Assembly (NCBI GenBank): GCA_963716145.1
Contig: OY970292.1
Span: 204,104 to 268,103 of the forward strand
Direction: 5' to 3'
DNA from: Candidatus Levyibacteriota bacterium
Lineage (GTDB): Bacteria > Patescibacteriota > Microgenomatia > Levybacterales > UBA12049
Length of the DNA stretch: 64,000 nucleotides
Below are positions 22,391-40,048 of this stretch, one piece after another. A program made the translations under genes and the position numbers. Under the pieces are notes generated by a model. The model saw only the letters and a list, made by a program, of their open reading frames with translations, did not search any database and was not told the origin of the DNA. Positions within the stretch are counted from its first letter, which is position 1. Every line of letters begins with the position of its first letter.

Positions 22391-24143
22391 ATGAAAATTG
22401 TAAATTATAAATTGAAAATTGAGCTTTGGTTTATTGCTCTATGGTTGTTTTTCTTCTTTGTCCCATCCGGCGTTTCTGCTTCCACAAACTTCACCACCGA
22501 CTATCGTGTAGTTTATACAATCAATGAAGGCGGCACAACGCATGCTGATTTAAACATTATCCTAACCAACACATCAGCTCAATTTTACGCATCTTCATAC
22601 CAAATTCAGCTTGGATTTGACAATATCGCCAACATTAAAGCATCGGACCGGCAGGGCAGGTAAATACCTCAATAAGTAAAACCAATGATGGACACAATGT
22701 CTTACTTGCCTTTAACAAAAAGGTTGTAGGTCAAGGCGCAAGATGCCTTTTACTTTATCGTTTGATACAGAAAATATAGCACATAATAACGGTAAAATTT
22801 GGGAGATAGACATACCTGGTATTAAAACTCCAAGTGATTTTAAAACCTTTGCGGTTGAAGTTAGGCCGCCATCATCTTTTGGAAAGCCCAGCCTTGTAAA
22901 GCCCCTTCAGAATAGTAAAAGCCTTACATTTGATAAGGATCAGCTGGGAAAATCCGGCATATCAATTGCATTTGGCGATAAACAAGTTTATGATTTTAAT
23001 CTCAAATATCATCTTAAAAATTCCAACCTTTTTCCGCTCAAAACAGAAATTGCGCTTCCTCCGGATACAAATTATCAAAAAGTGTTTATCGAGAATATCA
23101 ATCCAAAGCCAAGTAATGTAATTATAGATAATGACGGGAATTGGCTTGCGCAATACTCATTAACTCCCTCTCAAAAATTGGATATATCTGTGAAGGGGAA
23201 CGTTGAGATCTCTCTTAATCCTAAATCTTCTCCTATCTCGGATAGGGAACTGGCGGAATATACTGCGCCCACCCGATATTGGCAAAGTAATGATCCGCAA
23301 ATTTTAAAATTGGCAAAAAAGTTAAAGACAGCTGACGCAATTTACGAATTTGTAGCGAAAACACTAAAGTATGACTTTTCGCGTGTCACACAAAATAAAG
23401 GACGCCTTGGGGGAATAAATGTTTTAAGTAATCCAACCTCAGCCGCATGCCGTGAATTTACAGATCTTTTTATCGCTCTATCCCGTGCGGCCGGCATTCC
23501 TGCTCGTGAAGTAAATGGGTTTGCTTATACTGAGAACAGCCGCGAACGCCCTGTCTCGCTTGTTCAGGATATTCTTCATGCATGGCCGGAGTATTATGAC
23601 ACACAAAAGAAGAGTTGGGTTATGGTAGATCCTACATGGGGCTCAACAACCGGCGGAGTTGATTATTTTGACGTTTTGGATTTTGATCATTTCACTTTTG
23701 CAATAAAAGGTAAAGCTGACAATTACCCTATACCGGCTGGTGGATACAAAGATTCAAGTGCTAGCACAATGAAAGATGTAGATATTTTGTTCAGCGATAA
23801 ATCATCTGAAACCTCTCAAAGCGTTGATATCCAAACTTCTTTTTCAAAACCTCAGATAGCAGGCCTTCCTATCTCAGTAAATGCTAGATTAGCCAACAGT
23901 AAGGGAAGCGCAACTATTCCCCAACTTATGTATGTATCCTCAGATAATTTGAGTCCAAAAAATAGAGGATTTAAGACTCCGGCTATACCGCCGTTTGGTT
24001 TTGTTGAAAATAAAATAAATTTCGATAGGACGAGCTTTTTGACAAATAAAGACGTCTCATTTGCAATCCGCTATGCAGGAAAAAATATTGAGCAAAAGAC
24101 AAAAATTATTCCGTTTTTTTTGCTCCTTGGAGATAAAAAATGA
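22391..24143 (+). pseudogene. secreted transglutaminase-like (Cys-His-Asp) protein, apparently split by two closely spaced frameshifts
   Basis: The ORF 22391-22663 carries a signal peptide (frame 2). An intervening protein-like segment in frame 1 (22639-22785) reads …GQVNTSISKTNDGHNVLLAFNKKVVGQGA…. The main ORF 22743-24143 (frame 0) has the transglutaminase core C-R-E-F…H-A-W-P-E-Y…D-P-T-W. Either sequencing errors or a genuine pseudogene. Confidence 0.5.
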
Positions 24144-25435
24144 CTTACAAAAGATCAAATTACAACCAGCTTCCTGAAAAAGCAGGGGTATATTTATATT
24201 CAAATGATGCGGGAAAAACTCTTTATGTGGGAAAAGCCAACAATCTCAAGTCACGAGTATCTTCATATTTTGTAAAAAACGCCAATCTTGGAGAAAAGAC
24301 CAGGCTTTTGGTTGAGCAGGTAGCGAAAATAAAGATTGTTATAGTTGAATCAGAACTGGAAGCTCTTCTTCTTGAAGCATTCTACATCAAAAAATTTCGT
24401 CCTAGATATAATATCAGGTTATCTGATGATAAATCATATGTCATGATCCGAATTACGATCAAAAATCCCTATCCCACAATACTTCTTGCAAGGCGGGAAG
24501 AGGATAAAAGCTCCATTTACTTTGGTCCGTATCCCAATTCCGGAGCTGTAAAGCTCGTACTCAAAACAATCAGAAAAGTTTTCCCTTATCAATCAGCTAT
24601 TAATCATCCCAAGCGAATTTGCCTATACAATCATCTCGGTCTTTGTCCGTGTCTTCCGGTTTTTGATTCTCCTGAATTGAGGAAGAATTATAAAAAAAAT
24701 ATTAAAGGTATTATCCGCATTCTTGAGGGCCAATCGCCAAAGATTGTAAAAGAACTTGAGAAGCAAAGGGACAAGCTGAGCAAAAAGGAAAATTATGAAG
24801 AAGCCAATGATATCAATAAAAAAATTAGTGCTCTTAAAATAATCACAGAACCATTTCATAAGCCGTTTGAATACGATCTTAATCCCAACTTAAGAATTGA
24901 TCTGAGAACGCTCGAGACCGCGGAGCTGATGAAGCATCTAGGAGAGAATGGATTGGCCGTTAAAAAACTTCATAGAATTGAATGTTATGATATTTCAAAT
25001 ACGCAGGGAACTCACGCAACAGGTTCAATGGTTGTTTTTACCGCCGGGGAGAAGGATTCAGGCCAATATAGAAGATTTAAGATAAAAAAAGACGGGATAC
25101 CAAATGATTTTGCAATGATGGAAGAGGTTCTTCAAAGAAGAATTCGGCATATTACAGATTGGGGTTTGCCCGACTTGATTATTGTTGATGGGGGGAAAGG
25201 ACAGGTTTCAAGCGCTCTAAAAGCGCTTGCTGTTAATAACATTAATATTCCATTGATAGGATTAGCCAAGCGTGAAGAAACAATTATTATTCCCAAAAAC
25301 ACAGATTTTGTCGAAGTCTCGCTTCCCAAAAACTCAAAAGCCCTGCATCTTATCATGCGAATACGGGATGAAGCTCACAGATTTGCAATTACCTATCACC
25401 GTCTGCTTCGTAGTAAAAACGCTCTAAGTAGTTAG
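24140..25435 (+). CDS. uvrC: excinuclease ABC subunit C (short form lacking the C-terminal HhH region)
   Basis: 431 aa: an N-terminal GIY-YIG domain (GVYLYSNDAGKTLYVGKANNLKSRVSSYF), a UvrBC-interaction region, and an RNase H-like endonuclease domain (IECYDISNTQGTHATGSMVVF). Start overlaps the preceding gene by 4 nt. Confidence 0.8.
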   Translation: MTYKRSNYNQLPEKAGVYLYSNDAGKTLYVGKANNLKSRVSSYFVKNANLGEKTRLLVEQVAKIKIVIVESELEALLLEAFYIKKFRPRYNIRLSDDKSYVMIRITIKNPYPTILLARREEDKSSIYFGPYPNSGAVKLVLKTIRKVFPYQSAINHPKRICLYNHLGLCPCLPVFDSPELRKNYKKNIKGIIRILEGQSPKIVKELEKQRDKLSKKENYEEANDINKKISALKIITEPFHKPFEYDLNPNLRIDLRTLETAELMKHLGENGLAVKKLHRIECYDISNTQGTHATGSMVVFTAGEKDSGQYRRFKIKKDGIPNDFAMMEEVLQRRIRHITDWGLPDLIIVDGGKGQVSSALKALAVNNINIPLIGLAKREETIIIPKNTDFVEVSLPKNSKALHLIMRIRDEAHRFAITYHRLLRSKNALSS

Positions 25436-32926: not shown

Positions 32927-33608
32927 ATGAAATCAAAAAAGGAAATTATAAAGCTTAGTGAGATTGTTAAAGAATATATAACAGGAGAAGTTGTGACTCG
33001 GGTGCTAAGCGGTATATCCATTACAATTAATCAGGGAGATTTTGTGGCAATAACAGGCCCTTCAGGATCAGGAAAATCAACCCTCATGAATATAATCGGT
33101 CTTTTGGATACTCCCACAACCGGAAAATATATATTGAATGGTTCAGACGTCACTGGACTTAGCGAGGATGAGCTTTCATTTATGCGAGAACCGCGAAATA
33201 GGCTTTGTTTTTCAATCCTTCAATTTGCTACCCCGTGCATCGGCGCTGGAAAATGTCATTCTCCCGGCAATTTACGCAGGCGTAAATAGTAAAGACAGGA
33301 AACAAAAAGCTATAGAGTTACTGACAAAAGTTGGTTTGGGTGAAAAATTAAATAATCGCCCGAATCAACTTTCAGGAGGACAACAACAAAGAGTCGCGAT
33401 TGCCAGATCCCTGGTTAACAACCCGGAATTGATTCTGGCAGATGAACCGACGGGAAATTTGGATACAAAATCAGGTGAAGATGTCATGAGCATTCTTAAA
33501 GATTTGAATAAAGCTGGAAAAACAATTGTTATGATTACTCATGAAGCAGATATAGCGGCAATAGCCAAAAAGATTATTCTCATCAGGGACGGTAAAGTAG
33601 TTAAATAA
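32927..33608 (+). pseudogene. ABC transporter ATP-binding protein (MacB/LolD-like), split by an apparent +1 frameshift near 33185-33200
   Basis: ORF 32927-33289 has Walker A GPSGSGKST and ends …DELSFMREPRNRLCF. ORF 33138-33608 begins …ENREIGFVFQSFNLLP and has [15 protein letters not shown] and [11 protein letters not shown]. Deleting one nt in GCGAGAACC restores MRNREIGFVFQ. Confidence 0.7.
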
Positions 33609-33612
33609 TTTT

Positions 33613-34803
33613 ATGAACTATCTGGAATTACTTAGGCTTGCATGGACAGCGTTGATCGCAAATAAACTGCGTACTCTTTTGACGGCGCTTGGAATTATAA
33701 TTGGGGTTTTCGCAATTATTTTGCTTGTTTCAATAGGGACAGGTTTGCAAAGCTCCATTACCGGACAAATCTCAGGCCTTGGCTCGAATCTTATATTTGT
33801 TGTGCCCGGAAACATTAATGGACAGCGGGGGCCTGGCGGAGTTTTGCCCAATAAGTTGATCTTGAATGACGCCAAAAATCTTCAAATAAAGCTAAAAGAA
33901 TTTGCGTATACTGCACCTGCTGTACAGCAGACAACAACTGTAAAATATAAAAATAAGTCCAATAAAAATACAACAATCTTGGGAACAAGTTCAAACTATC
34001 CGCAAGTTGTTAAAACAGATCTCGCTGAGGGGACGTTTTTTACGCCTGCTCAGGAACGCTCAGGTTCAAAAGTAGCAATTATTGGATTGACGGTTGTTGA
34101 CAATCTTTTTAATGGACAGAGTCCGATTGGAAAAAATATTTCAATTGGAAGTGCCCGCTATAAAGTGATTGGTGTGGCAGCAAAGAAGGGGTCAGTTTTT
34201 GGTCAGGATAGGGATAATGCGATTGCAATCCCAATTACAGTTGCAATGCGTCAATTTGGGCTAAATAACGTAAGCACTATTTACTTGGAAGCCAAAAGAC
34301 CGGAGCTTGTACCCACTGTTAAGGAACAAGGGAAAAAGGTATTACTGCATAGGCTGACAGAGGATGATTTTACGCTTCAGACGCAAGAGGATACCCTCTC
34401 AACTATCACAACTGTCACCAATACGCTGACAATTGCGCTTGGAGGCATTGCCGCGATTTCTTTATTGGTCGGAGGAATTGGCGTTGCTAATATCATGCTT
34501 GTTTCGGTGACCGAAAGAACAAAAGAGATAGGTCTTAGAAAAGCACTGGGTGCGCAAAGAGCAGATATTCTAAAGCAATTTTTGCTGGAAGCGGTAATTT
34601 TGTCTTTGACAGGCGGAGCAATTGGGATTTTGCTTGGAATCGGAGCTTCCGTAATAGCTTCCAGGTTTCTTGAAACCAGTGTTACTCTTTGGTCTGTTCT
34701 TCTTGCTTTTGGTTTTTCAGTTGCTGTTGGAGTTATCTTTGGGATGGCACCGGCAATCCGTGCGTCCCGCCTTTCCCCAATTGAGGCTTTACGTTACGAA
34801 TAA
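33613..34803 (+). CDS. ABC transporter permease (MacB-like, FtsX domain)
   Basis: 396 aa: N-terminal TM, large periplasmic MacB_PCD-like domain, C-terminal FtsX-like 3 TMs (LGGIAAISLLVGGIGVANIMLVSVTERTKEIGLRKALGA). Confidence 0.8.
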   Translation: MNYLELLRLAWTALIANKLRTLLTALGIIIGVFAIILLVSIGTGLQSSITGQISGLGSNLIFVVPGNINGQRGPGGVLPNKLILNDAKNLQIKLKEFAYTAPAVQQTTTVKYKNKSNKNTTILGTSSNYPQVVKTDLAEGTFFTPAQERSGSKVAIIGLTVVDNLFNGQSPIGKNISIGSARYKVIGVAAKKGSVFGQDRDNAIAIPITVAMRQFGLNNVSTIYLEAKRPELVPTVKEQGKKVLLHRLTEDDFTLQTQEDTLSTITTVTNTLTIALGGIAAISLLVGGIGVANIMLVSVTERTKEIGLRKALGAQRADILKQFLLEAVILSLTGGAIGILLGIGASVIASRFLETSVTLWSVLLAFGFSVAVGVIFGMAPAIRASRLSPIEALRYE

Positions 34804-34894
34804 AGCCGAAATGCTGAGTTTGTCGAAGTATCGAAGCATTAAGATACGAATAAGAAGCATGGTTTTATATACTAAATTTTAGTACAATAGCTGA

Positions 34895-37258
34895 GTGAAT
34901 AATCGCATAATAAGTATTTTCAAATATCTTCTCGGCTGGCCTTTTTCAATTCTCGCGTTATTTTTTATCCTGAAATTAATCATCCCGCAAATCCCTGTAC
35001 TTCTTAATAATATAAAAAGCCTAAATCTTGTTATTTTACTGGGAGGGGTTTTTAGTTTTCTGCTTTTTTATTTCATAAGAAGCTATATTTGGTATAGGCT
35101 TATTAACCATTATAAAAATAGCATCTCATTTAAACAGTCTTCATATTTTTGGGCTTTATCTGAACTTAAAAGATACATACCGGGAAGCATAATTGCTCTT
35201 TTGAGCCGGACAGTTTTGTTTTCAAAACTGGGAATTGCCAAAAAAGAAGTGGGAAAGTTATTGATAGTTGAAGCAGGCATTTTTGTGTTGGGGGCATCTG
35301 TAATTTCATTGTTGGCACTCCCTTTTGTAGCTAATTATTTTTTTTCTTGGCTAAACGTTACTTATCAATTATTCATTTCTTATGCAGTTTTATTACTGGT
35401 ACTGGTATATACTTTCAATCGTAAATTCTCAAAGATTCTACCCGACTTCACTTCATCAGAAAACGTGTTTTTGATCTTTTTAAGTTGTTGTGCTGTGTTA
35501 TTCTTCGGGGTAGGTAATTATTTTGTCATAAACTCATTTATGGCTCTTCCGATAAATCTTTTCTTTCAATTAAGCGGATTTTTTACTTTGTCAATTCTTA
35601 TTGGTTACTTATCTATTCTGACACCGGCCGGGTTTGGAGTACGTGAAGGAATAGTTATCGTGGGTCTTTCAAAAATTCCAGCAGTTACGCTTAGTGCTTT
35701 TGCAGCGCTTTTTTCAAGAATTGTTTTAGTTTTATCAGAGTTAATTTTTGTTGGCTTAGTTTACTTTTGGCACAAAACAAAAAATAAAAAAATCTTGGCC
35801 TGGGAAGACTGGATAGGAAAACATAAGCAGGAGGTTATTCTAACATTCTTATTTGTGGCCTTCGTACTGTATTTTACAGTAACTAGTTTTGCCCGCTATG
35901 ATAATTTTTACGCCGGTAGATTTGATCTTGGCAATATGGCGCAAACAGTTTGGAATACGACAAAAGGCAGAATTTTTGAATTCACCAATCCAAATGGAAC
36001 AAGCATGATATCCCGTCTTGCCTTTCACGCGGATTTTTTACTTATTTTACTTGCGCCTTTTTACGCAATTTTTCCAAACCCCAAAACTCTGCTTTTAATT
36101 CAAGCAGTTGTTGTGGGGGCGGGATGTATTTTTATCTATCTAATTGCCAAGGACAAACTAAGCAATAAAAATTTAGCTCTAGTTTTTAGCTTTGCTTACC
36201 TTATTAATCCCAGTATTCAGAGAGCAACTCTTTACGACTTTCATCCGGTGACCCTGGCCACGACATTTTTGCTGGGTACTTATTACTTTTATTCTAAAAG
36301 AAAATATATTCTGTTTTTTATTTTTGCACTACTTGCGGGAGTTAGCAAAGAGCAGATTTGGCTAATAATCGGGCTTTTCGGTGGTTTAATATTTTTCAAA
36401 CAAAAGAAGAGAGCGCTCGGGGCAGCGATCTTTTTTTCTTGTTTGGGGATATTTTATTATCTTGTTTCTGTAGCCATTCCCAATGCGTACGGCGCATCAC
36501 ACTTTGCATTAGCTTATTATTCTGATTTTGGTGATAGTCCTCTGACAATCATAAAAACCCTAATTTTGTCTCCGCAAAAAGTAATAAGCATTGTGTTTCA
36601 AAAAGAGCAGATTGATTATCTAATTCAATTATTTGCACCTCTTGGTTTTCTTTCTTTTCTTTCACCGTTTTATCTTTTCTTAGCAGGTCCTGATCTTCTT
36701 ATAAACCTTTTAAGCAACAATTCGCAATTTCATCAAATATATTACCAGTACACGGCGGCAATATCACCATTTATTTTTATCTGTGCAATTTTGGGAATAA
36801 AGACTATTAGGCAATTTATAGTAAAAAATAAGAGCATTGATGCGTATTCAAAGTCCAGTATAAATTTAGTTTTTACTATTTACATTGGGGTGGTCTCATT
36901 GTATTCCGCCTACCTTTATGGTCCGTTACCGGGGTCAAAAAGTCCCAATCTTGATATGTTTACCAAGCCTGTTAAGAATAGGGAGTTTATAGATGAGTAT
37001 TTAACTACGATTCCAAAGCGTCTAAGTGTTGCCTCCTCCAACAATATCGGCTCTCATTTTTCCCAGCGCCAGCGGATTTATACTCTGCCTCTGGGAATTG
37101 ACACAGCAGATGTGATAGTGTTCCTTCTAGATGATTCCGAACCTCCTGGTTCTCTAGCGCTTGAAAAGGCACAGCTTGAAAAAATGAGAAAAGATAAAAA
37201 CTATGAAATTACTGTTGAAAAAGATTCATTTGTAGTATTTAGGAAAAAGAAGATATAA
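34895..37258 (+). CDS. large polytopic membrane protein: N-terminal flippase-like (UPF0104/LPG-synthase TM-like) region fused to DUF2079-like domain
   Basis: 787 aa, more than 20 TM helices; the central region FARYDNFYAGRFDLGNMAQTVWNTTKGRIFEF…ISRLAFHADFLLILLAPFYAIF resembles DUF2079. Confidence 0.4.
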   Translation: MNNRIISIFKYLLGWPFSILALFFILKLIIPQIPVLLNNIKSLNLVILLGGVFSFLLFYFIRSYIWYRLINHYKNSISFKQSSYFWALSELKRYIPGSIIALLSRTVLFSKLGIAKKEVGKLLIVEAGIFVLGASVISLLALPFVANYFFSWLNVTYQLFISYAVLLLVLVYTFNRKFSKILPDFTSSENVFLIFLSCCAVLFFGVGNYFVINSFMALPINLFFQLSGFFTLSILIGYLSILTPAGFGVREGIVIVGLSKIPAVTLSAFAALFSRIVLVLSELIFVGLVYFWHKTKNKKILAWEDWIGKHKQEVILTFLFVAFVLYFTVTSFARYDNFYAGRFDLGNMAQTVWNTTKGRIFEFTNPNGTSMISRLAFHADFLLILLAPFYAIFPNPKTLLLIQAVVVGAGCIFIYLIAKDKLSNKNLALVFSFAYLINPSIQRATLYDFHPVTLATTFLLGTYYFYSKRKYILFFIFALLAGVSKEQIWLIIGLFGGLIFFKQKKRALGAAIFFSCLGIFYYLVSVAIPNAYGASHFALAYYSDFGDSPLTIIKTLILSPQKVISIVFQKEQIDYLIQLFAPLGFLSFLSPFYLFLAGPDLLINLLSNNSQFHQIYYQYTAAISPFIFICAILGIKTIRQFIVKNKSIDAYSKSSINLVFTIYIGVVSLYSAYLYGPLPGSKSPNLDMFTKPVKNREFIDEYLTTIPKRLSVASSNNIGSHFSQRQRIYTLPLGIDTADVIVFLLDDSEPPGSLALEKAQLEKMRKDKNYEITVEKDSFVVFRKKKI

Positions 37259-37265
37259 TCAAAAT

Positions 37266-38077
37266 ATGCTGTCTGTCATAAAAGCTGATAAAACTCGTGA
37301 GCCTTTTAGTGAGGAAAAAGTTATTAACTCCATAAAAAGAGCTGGAATTCATGATTCAATCCAGCAAAAAGTTCTTCTTCACATAAAAAACAAGCTTTAC
37401 GATGGAATTCCGACCTCAGAAATTTATCATCACATTGTTGAGTTTCTTGGGCAATCCGAACAGCCGTATTCAAAGTCAAGATATAGCCTCAAGGAAAGTA
37501 TAATGCTGCTTGGGCCCACTGGATATCCGTTTGAAGATTTTGTGGCTAAGCTTTTGCAAGCCGATGGATATTCAACTAAAGTCAGGCAGATTTTATCTGG
37601 AGAATGCGTAACTCATGAAATTGATGTAATTGCTTCCAAAAACGGTAGAACTGCCATGATCGAGGCAAAATTTCACAACAATCCGGGCACCGCTCACAAA
37701 TTCATGTTGGGCTATACACTCAAGCGCGTTTTGAAGATGTAAAGACTCGTAACAAGCTTGATGAGGCTTGGCTTGTCACCAACACGAAGACCACAGTAGA
37801 CGTCAATACCTACGCGCAGTGTAAAAATATCAAGGTTATGAGTTGGAGCTACCCTGAAGGAGGAGGACTTCGTGATTTGATAGAGAAATCGCGTCTTCAT
37901 CCGATTACGCTTTTAACCTCTATTAATCAGTCACAAAAAAGGTTACTTCTGGAAAATCATACAGTAATATGCAAAGAAATAAATCTTAATCCCAAGCTTT
38001 TGGATATCCTAAATTTGCCTCAAGAAGCAGTTGATCGGCTGCTGAGTGAGATCTCTTTCATTTGTAAGCAGGAATAA
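37266..38077 (+). pseudogene. ATP-cone domain fused to Mrr-like (type IV restriction endonuclease-like) nuclease domain; reading frame interrupted near 37700
   Basis: ORF 37266-37742 has an N-terminal ATP-cone (VIKADKTREPFSEEKVINSIKRAG) and an Mrr_cat-like core (GECVTHEIDVIASKNGRTAMIEAKFHNN). The protein continues without a stop in the -1 frame from about 37700 (…YTQARFEDVKTRNKLDEAWLVTNTKTTVDVNTYAQCKNIKV…) into ORF 37838-38077. Confidence 0.55.
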
Positions 38078-38156
38078 TATTTCTCACACTTTTATTACAC
38101 GCTCCACATAGATTTTTAACTGCCGGTATTTAAACTACGTATAGTTTTGAAAGGAG

Positions 38157-38375
38157 GTGATTATACATATGGCAACAGTTGTAAATAATCCGCCGGCAAA
38201 TTCAGAAGCAAGCGGAGGATCTGGTTTTTTGATAGGGATAATTTTACTTATTGTTTTAGCGATTTTATTTATTTTTTACGGACTTCCGCTACTCAATAAT
38301 TCAGTTGGAGGAAGTCAAGCGCCACAGGTAAACGTACCGGGCAAGATTGATGTAAACGTCAATCAACCTAAGTAG
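38157..38375 (+). CDS. small membrane protein
   Basis: 72 aa with one TM helix (GFLIGIILLIVLAILFIFYGL); preceded by the GGAGGTGAT RBS. Confidence 0.35.
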   Translation: MIIHMATVVNNPPANSEASGGSGFLIGIILLIVLAILFIFYGLPLLNNSVGGSQAPQVNVPGKIDVNVNQPK

Positions 38376-38401
38376 GTTAGGGATTTTAAAAATGAAAGGA
38401 G

Positions 38402-38677
38402 GTGAAAATAAAATTTATGAATTTTTTAATCTGGGTTATATTTGGAGCTCTTGCAGGCTGGATAGCCTCAATAATAATGGGTAATGATGCTCAGCAAGGA
38501 GCACTCGGAAACATCATAGTTGGTATTGTCGGCGCATTCATCGGGGGATTTGTTATGAACTCACTTGGTCAACCCGGTGTAACTGGCTTTAACTTTTACA
38601 GTACTTTAGTTGCTGTTTTAGGGGCTGTAATCCTTATCTGGCTTTACAGAATGTTTAGCCACAGAAGCAGCGTATAA
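38402..38677 (+). CDS. GlsB/YeaQ/YmgE-family (transglycosylase-associated) stress membrane protein
   Basis: The GALAGWIASIIMG…GNIIVGIVGAFIGGFV pattern fits this family. The probable start is MNFLIWVIFG at 38417. Confidence 0.6.
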   Translation: MKIKFMNFLIWVIFGALAGWIASIIMGNDAQQGALGNIIVGIVGAFIGGFVMNSLGQPGVTGFNFYSTLVAVLGAVILIWLYRMFSHRSSV

Positions 38678-38710
38678 TTTGTGTAAATAATATACCGCAA
38701 AGACCCGCCG

Positions 38711-40048
38711 TTAATCTATAAGATTATCAAGGCGGGTCTTTTCGTCTGTCGCAAATTTTGCCCTCTCATATCTATCAGCCATAAATCCATTTGGTACAGT
38801 TGTCAGTTTATCGGCATATAGCAAAAAGCCGTTACGGATAGTGTGATCTCCGAATTTTTCATTAATTTTGTCCACCGCTTGCCAAAGTCCTCTTTGTTTT
38901 TCTGTTTCAAAAATTGAGAAGGGGACCTTATCCGCATCCTGCAAATAAGAAGCCCAAATACCTATTTGACGGACATAGTTTGGAAATTTCCAATAATTAC
39001 CAATTTCAAATATCCAATTTCCAATAGGTTCATTTTCCATTTTAAATTTGGCATTTGAAATTTGAAATTCTTTGCAAAGCAAAGACATGCACGCTTCAAA
39101 TATCTCCCGTCCGGAATTCATGTATTGAGAGTAGGTTTTTCTACCCTGCAGGTTCTCATCTCCTCTCAGGTATATTCCAACAGCGCGGGCTTTCTTGTTA
39201 AGTCGTCTGAGCTTGATACCTACTTCCTCACAAAGCTCATAAATATTTTGCAGGACTTTTCGCGGGTCATATTCATTTTCAGGCAAGCAATAGTTGCGTC
39301 CTACGGATTTCGCATCGGGCGATTCAGTATAAGGCACAATTTCACTCTCATCTATTCCTAGGCCGGCATTTTTTAGGAATTTACCCTCCACATCGCCAAA
39401 TTCGGAAGTCAAAGCCGATAATGGAGCTTTATTAAGATCTATTAAGTTGTAAATTCCCATTGCGAAAAGCCTGTCATTTATCCGGTGTCCGATCCCGCAG
39501 ATATCCCTTAGCTTGACTGCTTTATAAACCTCAAATAGGTTGGAAGGCGTTATCTTAACTATTCCATTTGGCTTCTCCAGTCCTGAAGCGAGTTTGGCAA
39601 GCATTTTATTATGAGAAATACCGAAAGAGGCCGTGATACATTCTCCCAATTCTTCGTTCAAGCGGTTTTTTATTTTTTCAACAAGGGGCATTGTGCCTCC
39701 GAAAAGGTCAGCAGTACGCGTTATGTCCATAAAAACTTCATCAAGCGAGAAAACTTCAACAAAAGGGGAGAAGTCTTTACAGATGTTTATAAACTTTTTA
39801 CTGATTTCCCAATACCTTGTAAAATGTGCCGGTACGAAAATAATTTGTGGACATCTTCTCTGTGCGTCATAGGTACGGGAGGGCGACTTGATGCCCAGTG
39901 CTTTTGCTTCCCTGCTTGCCGCTATGATACAGGTTCTGCCGTTGGTGGCAGTTACTCCAAGAGGACGGTTGCGGTAAAGAGGATTATCCTGCTGTTCAAC
40001 GCTTGCAAAAAATGAATCAAAATCAATGTGGAGAATTATTCGCTGCAC
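38711..40048 (-). CDS. dinB: Y-family DNA polymerase (DinB/Pol IV-like)
   Basis: 445 aa with the N-terminal ILHIDFDSFFASVEQ active-site motif and SLDEVFMDIT. Confidence 0.8.
   Translation of the reverse strand: MQRIILHIDFDSFFASVEQQDNPLYRNRPLGVTATNGRTCIIAASREAKALGIKSPSRTYDAQRRCPQIIFVPAHFTRYWEISKKFINICKDFSPFVEVFSLDEVFMDITRTADLFGGTMPLVEKIKNRLNEELGECITASFGISHNKMLAKLASGLEKPNGIVKITPSNLFEVYKAVKLRDICGIGHRINDRLFAMGIYNLIDLNKAPLSALTSEFGDVEGKFLKNAGLGIDESEIVPYTESPDAKSVGRNYCLPENEYDPRKVLQNIYELCEEVGIKLRRLNKKARAVGIYLRGDENLQGRKTYSQYMNSGREIFEACMSLLCKEFQISNAKFKMENEPIGNWIFEIGNYWKFPNYVRQIGIWASYLQDADKVPFSIFETEKQRGLWQAVDKINEKFGDHTIRNGFLLYADKLTTVPNGFMADRYERAKFATDEKTRLDNLID

Follow-up and report, generated by a model that had tools for sequence, protein, structure and literature searches.

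A gene at positions 37266-38077 (forward strand) of a 64,000-nucleotide (nt) stretch of a Candidatus Levyibacteriota genome, hereafter the window, encodes in two reading frames an N-terminal ATP-cone, an Mrr_cat-type PD-(D/E)xK nuclease and a C-terminal helical domain. We show that this locus is an orthologue of a widespread single-protein family of about 270 amino acids (aa), in which an NrdR-type cone is joined to an AF1548/Mrr_cat nuclease and an AF1548-like C-terminal helical domain. The explanation that best fits the evidence as a whole, and one we lean towards, is that this copy has been split by a probable artefact or minority allele, and that the intact protein would be an adenine-nucleotide-gated nuclease with a role in nucleic-acid turnover and salvage. 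All coordinates are window positions, and residues are numbered on the joined 270-aa product.

One gene in two reading frames

An open reading frame (ORF) scan gives a frame 0 product of 158 aa that begins with an ATG at 37266 and ends at 37742. A second reading, in frame 2 (−1 relative to frame 0), is open from 37649 to a stop at 38075-38077. Conceptual translation aligned with the closest relatives places the join between the two frames at Thr142/Arg143: where the family has KFHN(S/N)PGT-RSQIHV, the window protein runs to NNPGT in frame 0 and continues as RSQIHVGLYTQARFEDV in frame 2. At the DNA level, an alignment of 813 nt with an intact syntenic orthologue is interrupted by a single gap: GGCA-CCGCT in the window corresponds to GGGACCCGCT in the orthologue, such that one C is absent from a CCC run at 37690-37692.

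The first-pass annotation of this DNA had described a one-nucleotide frameshift in the nuclease core, near 37700, and had taken the continuation to be the same protein. The shift exists and lies within the nuclease domain, seven codons past the catalytic E133-x-K135, although its actual position is some 10 nt from the one given. The continuation also proved to be the same protein. With the missing C restored, the joined product is 270 aa long, the modal length of the family and that of its intact relatives, and it matches more than 2000 proteins, the best of them 81% identical over 100% of the length (E=1.7e-146). Chance joining of unrelated reading frames is therefore excluded. In the public NCBI/ENA contig (1,142,061 bp), the 158-aa and 79-aa pieces are entered as two proteins, with no record of the intact 270-aa sequence. 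The parts of the gene and the domains of its joined product are as follows.

37266-37691, forward strand: 5′ part of the gene, frame 0, codons 1-142 (M1...T142); in the public record a 158-aa coding sequence continuing out of frame to 37742
37691-38077, forward strand: 3′ part of the gene, frame 2, codons 143-270 plus stop (R143...E270, TAA at 38075-38077)
37838-38077, forward strand: 3′ part as it appears in the public record, annotated only as a 79-aa coding sequence from an internal ATG
37689-37693, forward strand: frameshift site, ACCGC here and ACCCGC in intact orthologues (Thr142-Arg143), one C missing
37266-37505, forward strand: NrdR-like ATP-cone domain, residues 1 to ~80 (Pfam match 3-62)
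37521-37840, forward strand: Mrr_cat/AF1548-type PD-(D/E)xK nuclease domain, residues 86-192, broken by the frameshift
37623-37670, forward strand: catalytic motif, with D120 at 37623-37625, E133 at 37662-37664 and K135 at 37668-37670
37847-38074, forward strand: C-terminal helical domain, residues ~195-270, aligning with the C-terminal domain of AF1548 (PF22357, AF1548-like_C, in homologues)

Residues 3-62 of the joined product score 36.8 bits with the Pfam ATP-cone family (PF03477), for which the cut-off is 25.8. When a profile built from the first 88 residues of the family was searched against the PDB, it found the cones of NrdR (E=8e-5, covering the whole cone) and NrdD (E=8e-3), in agreement with the earlier reading of the N-terminal ~85 aa as an ATP-cone. 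Designed helical-repeat proteins scored above both in that search and were judged spurious. NrdR has the closest cone among solved structures, and its inner- and outer-site ATP/dATP contact residues are conserved in the window protein. In alignment to residues 46-70 of Streptomyces coelicolor NrdR, V4, K6, E12, F14, K18 and R25 pair with V48, K50, E56, F58, K62 and K69. In NrdR, K50, R51 and E56 contact the inner-site nucleotide and K62 the outer-site one, while V48 is implicated by mutation, F58 sterically excludes guanine, and K69 touches the phosphates of both nucleotides (PMC9110341). Across the family, K6 does not vary, and at least 90% of members have K18. We conclude that the cone is of the NrdR type, with its adenine-nucleotide contact residues kept, and is predicted from its sequence to be competent for nucleotide binding. 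Two observations tell against this assignment: the position of NrdR R51 is occupied by Ala (A7) here, the same position being Ser in E. coli NrdR, and the cone was modelled by AlphaFold with moderate confidence only (predicted local distance difference test, pLDDT, 37-79).

The protein is nonetheless not NrdR itself. TIGR00244 reaches 16.4 bits against a cut-off of 124.65, over the cone region only, and no Zn-ribbon is present. Whereas the output of NrdR is an N-terminal DNA-binding Zn-ribbon, the window protein has its cone at the N-terminus and a PD-(D/E)xK nuclease as its output.

That nuclease matches PF04471 (Mrr_cat) over residues 86-192 with 33.5 bits (cut-off 21), in a match that spans the frameshift; the truncated 158-aa ORF alone scores 23.9 bits. 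At least 95% of 143 diverse family members retain each of its putative catalytic residues (D120, E133 and K135), whose D-x12-E-x-K spacing is that of the catalytic triad predicted for AF1548 (PMC1821046). Structure prediction on the conceptual full-length product, which the first-pass annotation had proposed as a check, gave an AlphaFold2 model with a mean pLDDT of 75 (82-95 in the strands of the nuclease core) and a restriction-endonuclease-like alpha/beta fold. In a fold search with Foldseek, the top match of this model was 1Y88, followed by Can2, Card1, XisH and McrC. The Pfam score, the conserved triad and the model all uphold the earlier view of the remainder of the protein as an Mrr_cat-like PD-(D/E)xK nuclease.

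PDB entry 1Y88 is AF1548 of Archaeoglobus fulgidus, which is homologous to the window protein over the nuclease domain and probably the C-terminal domain (phmmer E=2e-29 over residues 91-239; Foldseek E=8e-14, 35% identity over 188 aligned columns, template modelling score 0.74 on the target). AF1548 differs in being 199 aa long and in having no ATP-cone; it is an uncharacterised protein whose structure comes from structural genomics. Among the papers searched, only the Global Ocean Sampling (GOS) paper discusses the protein, most matches for AF1548 being unrelated accession numbers. The AF1548-like_C profile PF22357 is recorded for several homologues; in the window protein, hmmscan gave no match to it at E≤1. 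Homology places the window protein, most probably, in the AF1548-like branch of Mrr_cat nucleases, with an ATP-cone added.

The nuclease domain also contains, beside the D/E/K triad, two cysteines conserved in at least 95% of family members, C114 (37605-37607) and C186 (37820-37822), and two conserved histidines, H117 (37614-37616; at least 95%) and H137 (37674-37676; at least 80%). AF1548 keeps both cysteines and has Gln at the position of H117. Together, C114, H117, H137 and C186 could be a candidate metal site or disulfide.

Origin of the frameshift

The first-pass annotation held that the gene was either inactivated or affected by an assembly indel. We judge this to be the right pair of alternatives, the one-base shift being real in the sequence. 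Judged from the assembled sequence, the frameshift probably reflects an indel introduced in sequencing or assembly, or a minority allele, rather than a fixed inactivation. That it is instead a real loss-of-function mutation, fixed or polymorphic, which would make the gene a very young pseudogene in this lineage, strikes us as the less likely alternative, albeit one with a genuine claim to consideration.

The sequence past the shift shows no decay: the frame runs through 128 codons without an internal stop, and none of the family-invariant residues has been lost. Compared with four intact homologues, the part before the shift has an identity of 0.76-0.83 and the part after it one of 0.78-0.82, so that the downstream part is as similar to its relatives as the upstream part. 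Further, the gene is intact elsewhere. A scan of one genome per species found a close relative in at least 596 species, and the best 80 of these, mostly Levyibacteriota and other Patescibacteria, were taken as related genome loci (L003-L082). An uninterrupted ORF of at least 266 aa is present in 80/80 of these loci, and only the window copy is split.

The window also contains a second frameshift, caused by one extra base at ~33188 (33186-33190), 4.5 kb upstream. It splits another conserved gene (32927-33608, forward strand), the ABC-transporter ATPase of a syntenic MacAB-like exporter operon, into pieces of 120 aa (ABC_tran profile positions 1-52) and 156 aa (positions 58-136), where intact homologues have ~225 aa. 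An ORF-geometry scan of the whole 64 kb found only these two convincing frameshifts. Other overlapping ORF pairs (a rhomboid gene and its downstream ORF; a GNAT gene and its downstream ORF) were rejected, one member of each having a complete Pfam domain.

An independent k-mer assembly of run ERR11593400 (Logan) provided two contigs that match the window almost exactly. Contig L093 corresponds to 33221-37691 and contig L094 to 37690-39013. The former ends in ...GGGCACC at 37691 and the latter starts with CCGCTCAC... (CCGCTC...) at 37690, which places the break exactly at the CC/CCC run, and each contig reaches as far as the sequence common to the CC and CCC alleles. Such contig ends are what results when an assembly graph branches into CC and CCC paths. 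At its other end, L093 starts ~33 nt past the frameshift in the ABC ATPase gene. Compared with the window, L093 has two 1-nt deletions of its own at an A-run (34297 and 34300), and the MacB permease is split in this contig. Because of these single-base homopolymer deletions, we regard the read set of the run as indel-prone. The megabase single-contig form of this candidate phyla radiation (CPR) genome suggests that the source assembly was made from long reads.

Part of this evidence points the other way. The graph-branch signature suits a real population polymorphism as well as read error, and is equally expected from two co-existing alleles. The deposited 1.14-Mb contig itself carries the shift, with both pieces annotated as separate coding sequences. 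A 158-aa product ends before the helix, fourth strand (TNTK) and C-terminal domain and would therefore be inactive. An indel or minority allele nevertheless remains our preferred explanation, given the absence of further damage, the intact gene in all related genomes, and the second single-base frameshift nearby.

A programmed frameshift, in which −1 ribosomal or transcriptional slippage would still yield the full-length protein, would agree with the −1 direction and the intact downstream frame. However, the site (GGC ACC GCT) has no slippery heptamer of the form X XXY YYZ, the 80/80 orthologous loci and more than 2000 homologues are in a single frame, and the closest DNA orthologue has one more C. 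Programmed frameshifting was rejected on these grounds and is exceedingly improbable. The pentamer ACCGC is found at or next to both frameshift sites (33190-33194; 37689-37693), a coincidence that we treat as chance. The pentamer occurs 61 times in the window against 49.6 expected, a count reached by 7/100 shuffles; a copy inside L093 is unbroken; and a rough estimate gives ~15% for two short windows sharing some 5-mer.

Distribution and genomic context

The family to which the gene belongs is large. Among 1.84 billion representatives at 50% identity, 1049 clusters match at E≤1e-3 and 428 at E≤1e-30. Nearly all members are full-length proteins of 266-295 aa with both ATP-cone and Mrr_cat domains. 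Beyond the related loci, the family has more distant members in other CPR lineages, in an Acidobacteria-labelled metagenome-assembled genome (MAG), on a Bacteroidota-like contig, and on an archaeal contig with TFIIB, Gar1 and Sec61-beta, as well as in the cultured Criblamydia sequanensis and Pontibacter actiniarum. The novelty of architecture implied by the first-pass annotation did not hold, as this is a large, catalogued but functionally uncharacterised family whose nuclease half has a solved structure (1Y88). The architecture is already named in public annotation, usually as 'ATP cone domain-containing protein', but also as 'restriction endonuclease' or, by the Joint Genome Institute (JGI), as 'Holliday junction resolvase-like predicted endonuclease'.

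Two genes flank the nuclease gene in a conserved arrangement.

34895-37258, forward strand: upstream gene, a 787-aa membrane protein with DUF2079 and LPG_synthase_TM, 7 nt from the nuclease gene
38711-40048, reverse strand: downstream gene, a convergent Y-family DNA polymerase (DinB/IMS)

The order found in the window (34895-40048) and conserved among Levyibacteriota is the DUF2079/LPG_synthase_TM gene, the ATP-cone nuclease gene, small membrane proteins (Transgly_assoc) and convergent DinB. Across 81 loci, comprising the 80 related genomes and the window, the membrane protein gene is upstream on the same strand in 79 and is the adjacent ORF in 70, and a convergent DinB lies near the gene in 61. 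No promoter-like site was found on the forward strand in the 7-nt gap between the membrane protein gene and the nuclease gene. Other recurrent neighbours in the related loci are a polysaccharide deacetylase, BipA, an S24 (LexA/UmuD-like) peptidase, MgsA/RarA and a major facilitator superfamily (MFS) transporter, and the wider window contains UvrA, UvrC, a MacAB-type exporter and transporters. At only 431 aa, the UvrC homologue (24140-25435, forward strand) falls short of the usual bacterial length; GIY-YIG and UvrC_RNaseH domains were reported for it, and no C-terminal helix-hairpin-helix (HhH) region.

These neighbours raise the possibility of a DNA repair or recombination nuclease, structure-specific or damage-associated, whose activity would be tied to dATP/ATP levels. 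Besides the frequent DinB, the recurrent S24 peptidase and MgsA/RarA, this idea draws on another CPR lineage, in which the family gene lies near a PDDEXK_1/Cas4-like nuclease and an O6-alkylguanine transferase. It also draws on the JGI name and on a faint HhH-type match in the C-terminal domain of one homologue. However, the convergent DinB implies that the two genes are not co-transcribed, the repair neighbours vary between lineages, and the only tightly linked same-strand partners across phyla are the RNA and nucleotide-metabolism enzymes described in the next section. We consider repair unlikely, yet it is the main functional rival to nucleic-acid turnover and salvage, with defence less likely again.

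A defence or regulatory function had been put forward as possible in the first-pass annotation, which listed a survey of neighbouring genes such as methyltransferases among its checks. In the window, the region within ~10 kb of the nuclease gene contains no methyltransferase, and none turned up either in the set of recurrent neighbours at the 80 related loci or among Pfam-annotated genes at eight loci of more distant members; altogether, neither a methyltransferase nor a defence gene was found nearby in ~170 loci. PADLOC-DB 2.0 returned only domain-level matches for the window protein (the nuclease end of ZorD at 1e-5 and weak CARF_PDDEXK matches) and no system partners nearby. Family copies were found in 0 of 50,697 phage genomes, 0 of 2.9 million viral contigs and 2/72,556 plasmids. 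Fixed synteny among housekeeping genes, the absence of phage and viral copies and the near absence from plasmids form the profile expected of a vertically inherited chromosomal gene, and not that of a restriction or defence module. A restriction-modification (R-M) system or defence island was rejected both on this distribution and on context, there being no methyltransferase and no PADLOC system, and the proposal of a defence function was consequently not sustained.

Mrr-type (type IV) restriction enzymes have the Mrr_cat catalytic domain family in common with the window protein, but the latter lacks the N-terminal Mrr_N reader of modified DNA, does not show a patchy or mobile distribution, and has a housekeeping context. 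Can2, Card1, Cdn1 and Cap4, effectors in which a CARF or SAVED domain is coupled to a nuclease, are the next-best fold matches, and likewise have an N-terminal nucleotide-ligand sensor controlling a C-terminal PD-(D/E)xK nuclease. Their sensors, however, bind cyclic oligonucleotides and their genes lie in CRISPR or cyclic-oligonucleotide-based anti-phage signalling system (CBASS) loci, whereas the window protein has an ATP-cone and no such loci nearby. The window protein is thus not an Mrr type IV enzyme, an R-M component or a CARF/SAVED effector.

In a broader form, defence would mean an anti-phage or anti-mobile-element nuclease, either type IV restriction-like or acting by abortive infection, in which the cone senses a phage-altered dATP/ATP pool and unleashes DNA cleavage. 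The Mrr_cat domain, the weak PADLOC matches to the ZorD nuclease and CARF-PD-(D/E)xK effectors, and the similar sensor-plus-nuclease layout of the ligand-activated Can2, Card1, Cdn1 and Cap4 would all suit such a role, and type IV enzymes do not need a methyltransferase. Set against this, the gene is single-copy, with 50-81% identity and fixed synteny across the phylum-level group sampled, and has housekeeping neighbours in each lineage examined. Adjacent defence genes and methyltransferases are lacking, mobile elements carry almost no copies, and the operon partners in other phyla are metabolic, none of them matching PADLOC. We regard an anti-phage role as improbable.

Operon partners in other phyla and proposed function

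In members of other phyla, the ATP-cone nuclease gene is the first of an operon, followed by genes for a beta-CASP/RMMBL metallo-hydrolase, an archaeal-type thymidine/AMP phosphorylase and a ribose-phosphate diphosphokinase. It was found at the following loci.

L095, 5001-9608: Criblamydia (Chlamydiota), plasmid NZ_LK031773
L096, 1972-6597: Pontibacter (Bacteroidota), plasmid NZ_CP021236
L089, L090 and 26/57 metagenome loci among L097-L176: the operon, wholly or in part

The beta-CASP protein is an RNase-J/CPSF-type enzyme, and the phosphorylase passes NF003338 and TIGR02645, with an AMP_phos score of 506 against a cut-off of 535. In Criblamydia, genes for a phosphoketolase, a glycogen phosphorylase and an acetate kinase lie beside the operon on the same strand. 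Partial versions occur in the Acidobacteria-labelled MAG, with phosphorylase and kinase downstream of the nuclease gene, and on the Bacteroidota-like contig, where the beta-CASP gene is 10 nt upstream of it. A scan of metagenome contigs with an alignment of the operon subfamily provided 80 loci (L097-L176). Downstream sequence of at least 1.5 kb is available at 57 of them, and 26 of these have a same-strand beta-CASP gene after the nuclease gene, directly next to it in 22 cases; at least 4.5 kb is available at 37 loci, 10 of which include the phosphorylase. Tandem universal stress proteins, a copper P-type ATPase, MgtC, D-2-hydroxyacid dehydrogenase and type II glyceraldehyde-3-phosphate dehydrogenase (GAPDH) are other recurrent neighbours in these metagenome loci, and fermentation enzymes also often lie around the operon. 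None of the operon partners matches any PADLOC defence model.

The same three gene families that follow the nuclease in Criblamydia and Pontibacter form the cluster bll3115-bll3117 of Bradyrhizobium diazoefficiens (metallo-beta-lactamase (MBL) hydrolase, Prs and thymidine-phosphorylase family), which is induced under microoxia (PMC6515984). This cluster differs in that the microoxia-induced table of that paper lists only these three families there (PMC6515984), and the trio is absent locally from the window and its Levyibacteriota relatives.

ATP-cones of ribonucleotide reductases (RNRs) and NrdR bind ATP or dATP, with a resulting change in oligomeric state (PMC9110341). In the window protein, the same logic is likely by analogy with NrdR, whose oligomeric state is switched by adenine nucleotides. 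The cone would bind ATP/dATP (or ADP), and binding would switch the oligomeric state, turning the metal-dependent endonuclease on or off. Cleavage would thereby be coupled to adenine-nucleotide or energy status. Nucleotide-gated cleavage of this kind is, in our view, a plausible mechanism. In a stress-induced salvage route, which these findings together suggest, the gated endonuclease would open nucleic acid and the beta-CASP exonuclease would yield mononucleotides, from which phosphorylase and kinase would feed bases and ribose phosphate into salvage or fermentation.

Because the operon partners in other phyla are a beta-CASP enzyme, a phosphorylase and a ribose-phosphate diphosphokinase, we infer that, rather than restriction, the most likely role of the protein would be controlled turnover of nucleic acids with salvage of nucleotides when energy or oxygen is limiting. 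In its fullest form, we speculate, with considerable reserve, that the family is an endonuclease gated by adenine nucleotides (energy charge or dATP). It would open a salvage route comprising the beta-CASP exonuclease, nucleoside monophosphate (NMP)/AMP phosphorylase and phosphoribosyl pyrophosphate (PRPP)/pentose metabolism, and would be on under energy or oxygen limitation. Genome-reduced CPR bacteria, which live on scavenged nucleotides, would have retained this gate by itself, as a core gene.

Several points weigh against extending this proposal to the window clade. Neither the window nor the Levyibacteriota loci contain the salvage-operon partners; the neighbours there are the membrane protein, DinB, the S24 peptidase and RarA. 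Since the partners are absent in this clade, the salvage function is only transferred from a sister subfamily at ~36% identity, and that transfer is a tentative hypothesis made by analogy. The papers searched include no experimental or dedicated computational study of any family member, and none connecting an ATP-cone with a restriction-type or Mrr nuclease.

The window locus itself is an ordinary orthologue. Its interruption is probably a base-calling or assembly error, which annotators should flag rather than read as biology. The family is the more interesting object, being large, strongly conserved and experimentally untouched, with the allosteric sensor of RNRs and NrdR wired to a nuclease. 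If the cone does gate cleavage by ATP/dATP, this would be a third kind of ATP-cone output, after enzyme inhibition and transcriptional repression. If true, it would provide a handle on how nucleic-acid breakdown is controlled in nucleotide-auxotrophic CPR bacteria and in hypoxia-stressed Bacteroidota and Chlamydiota.

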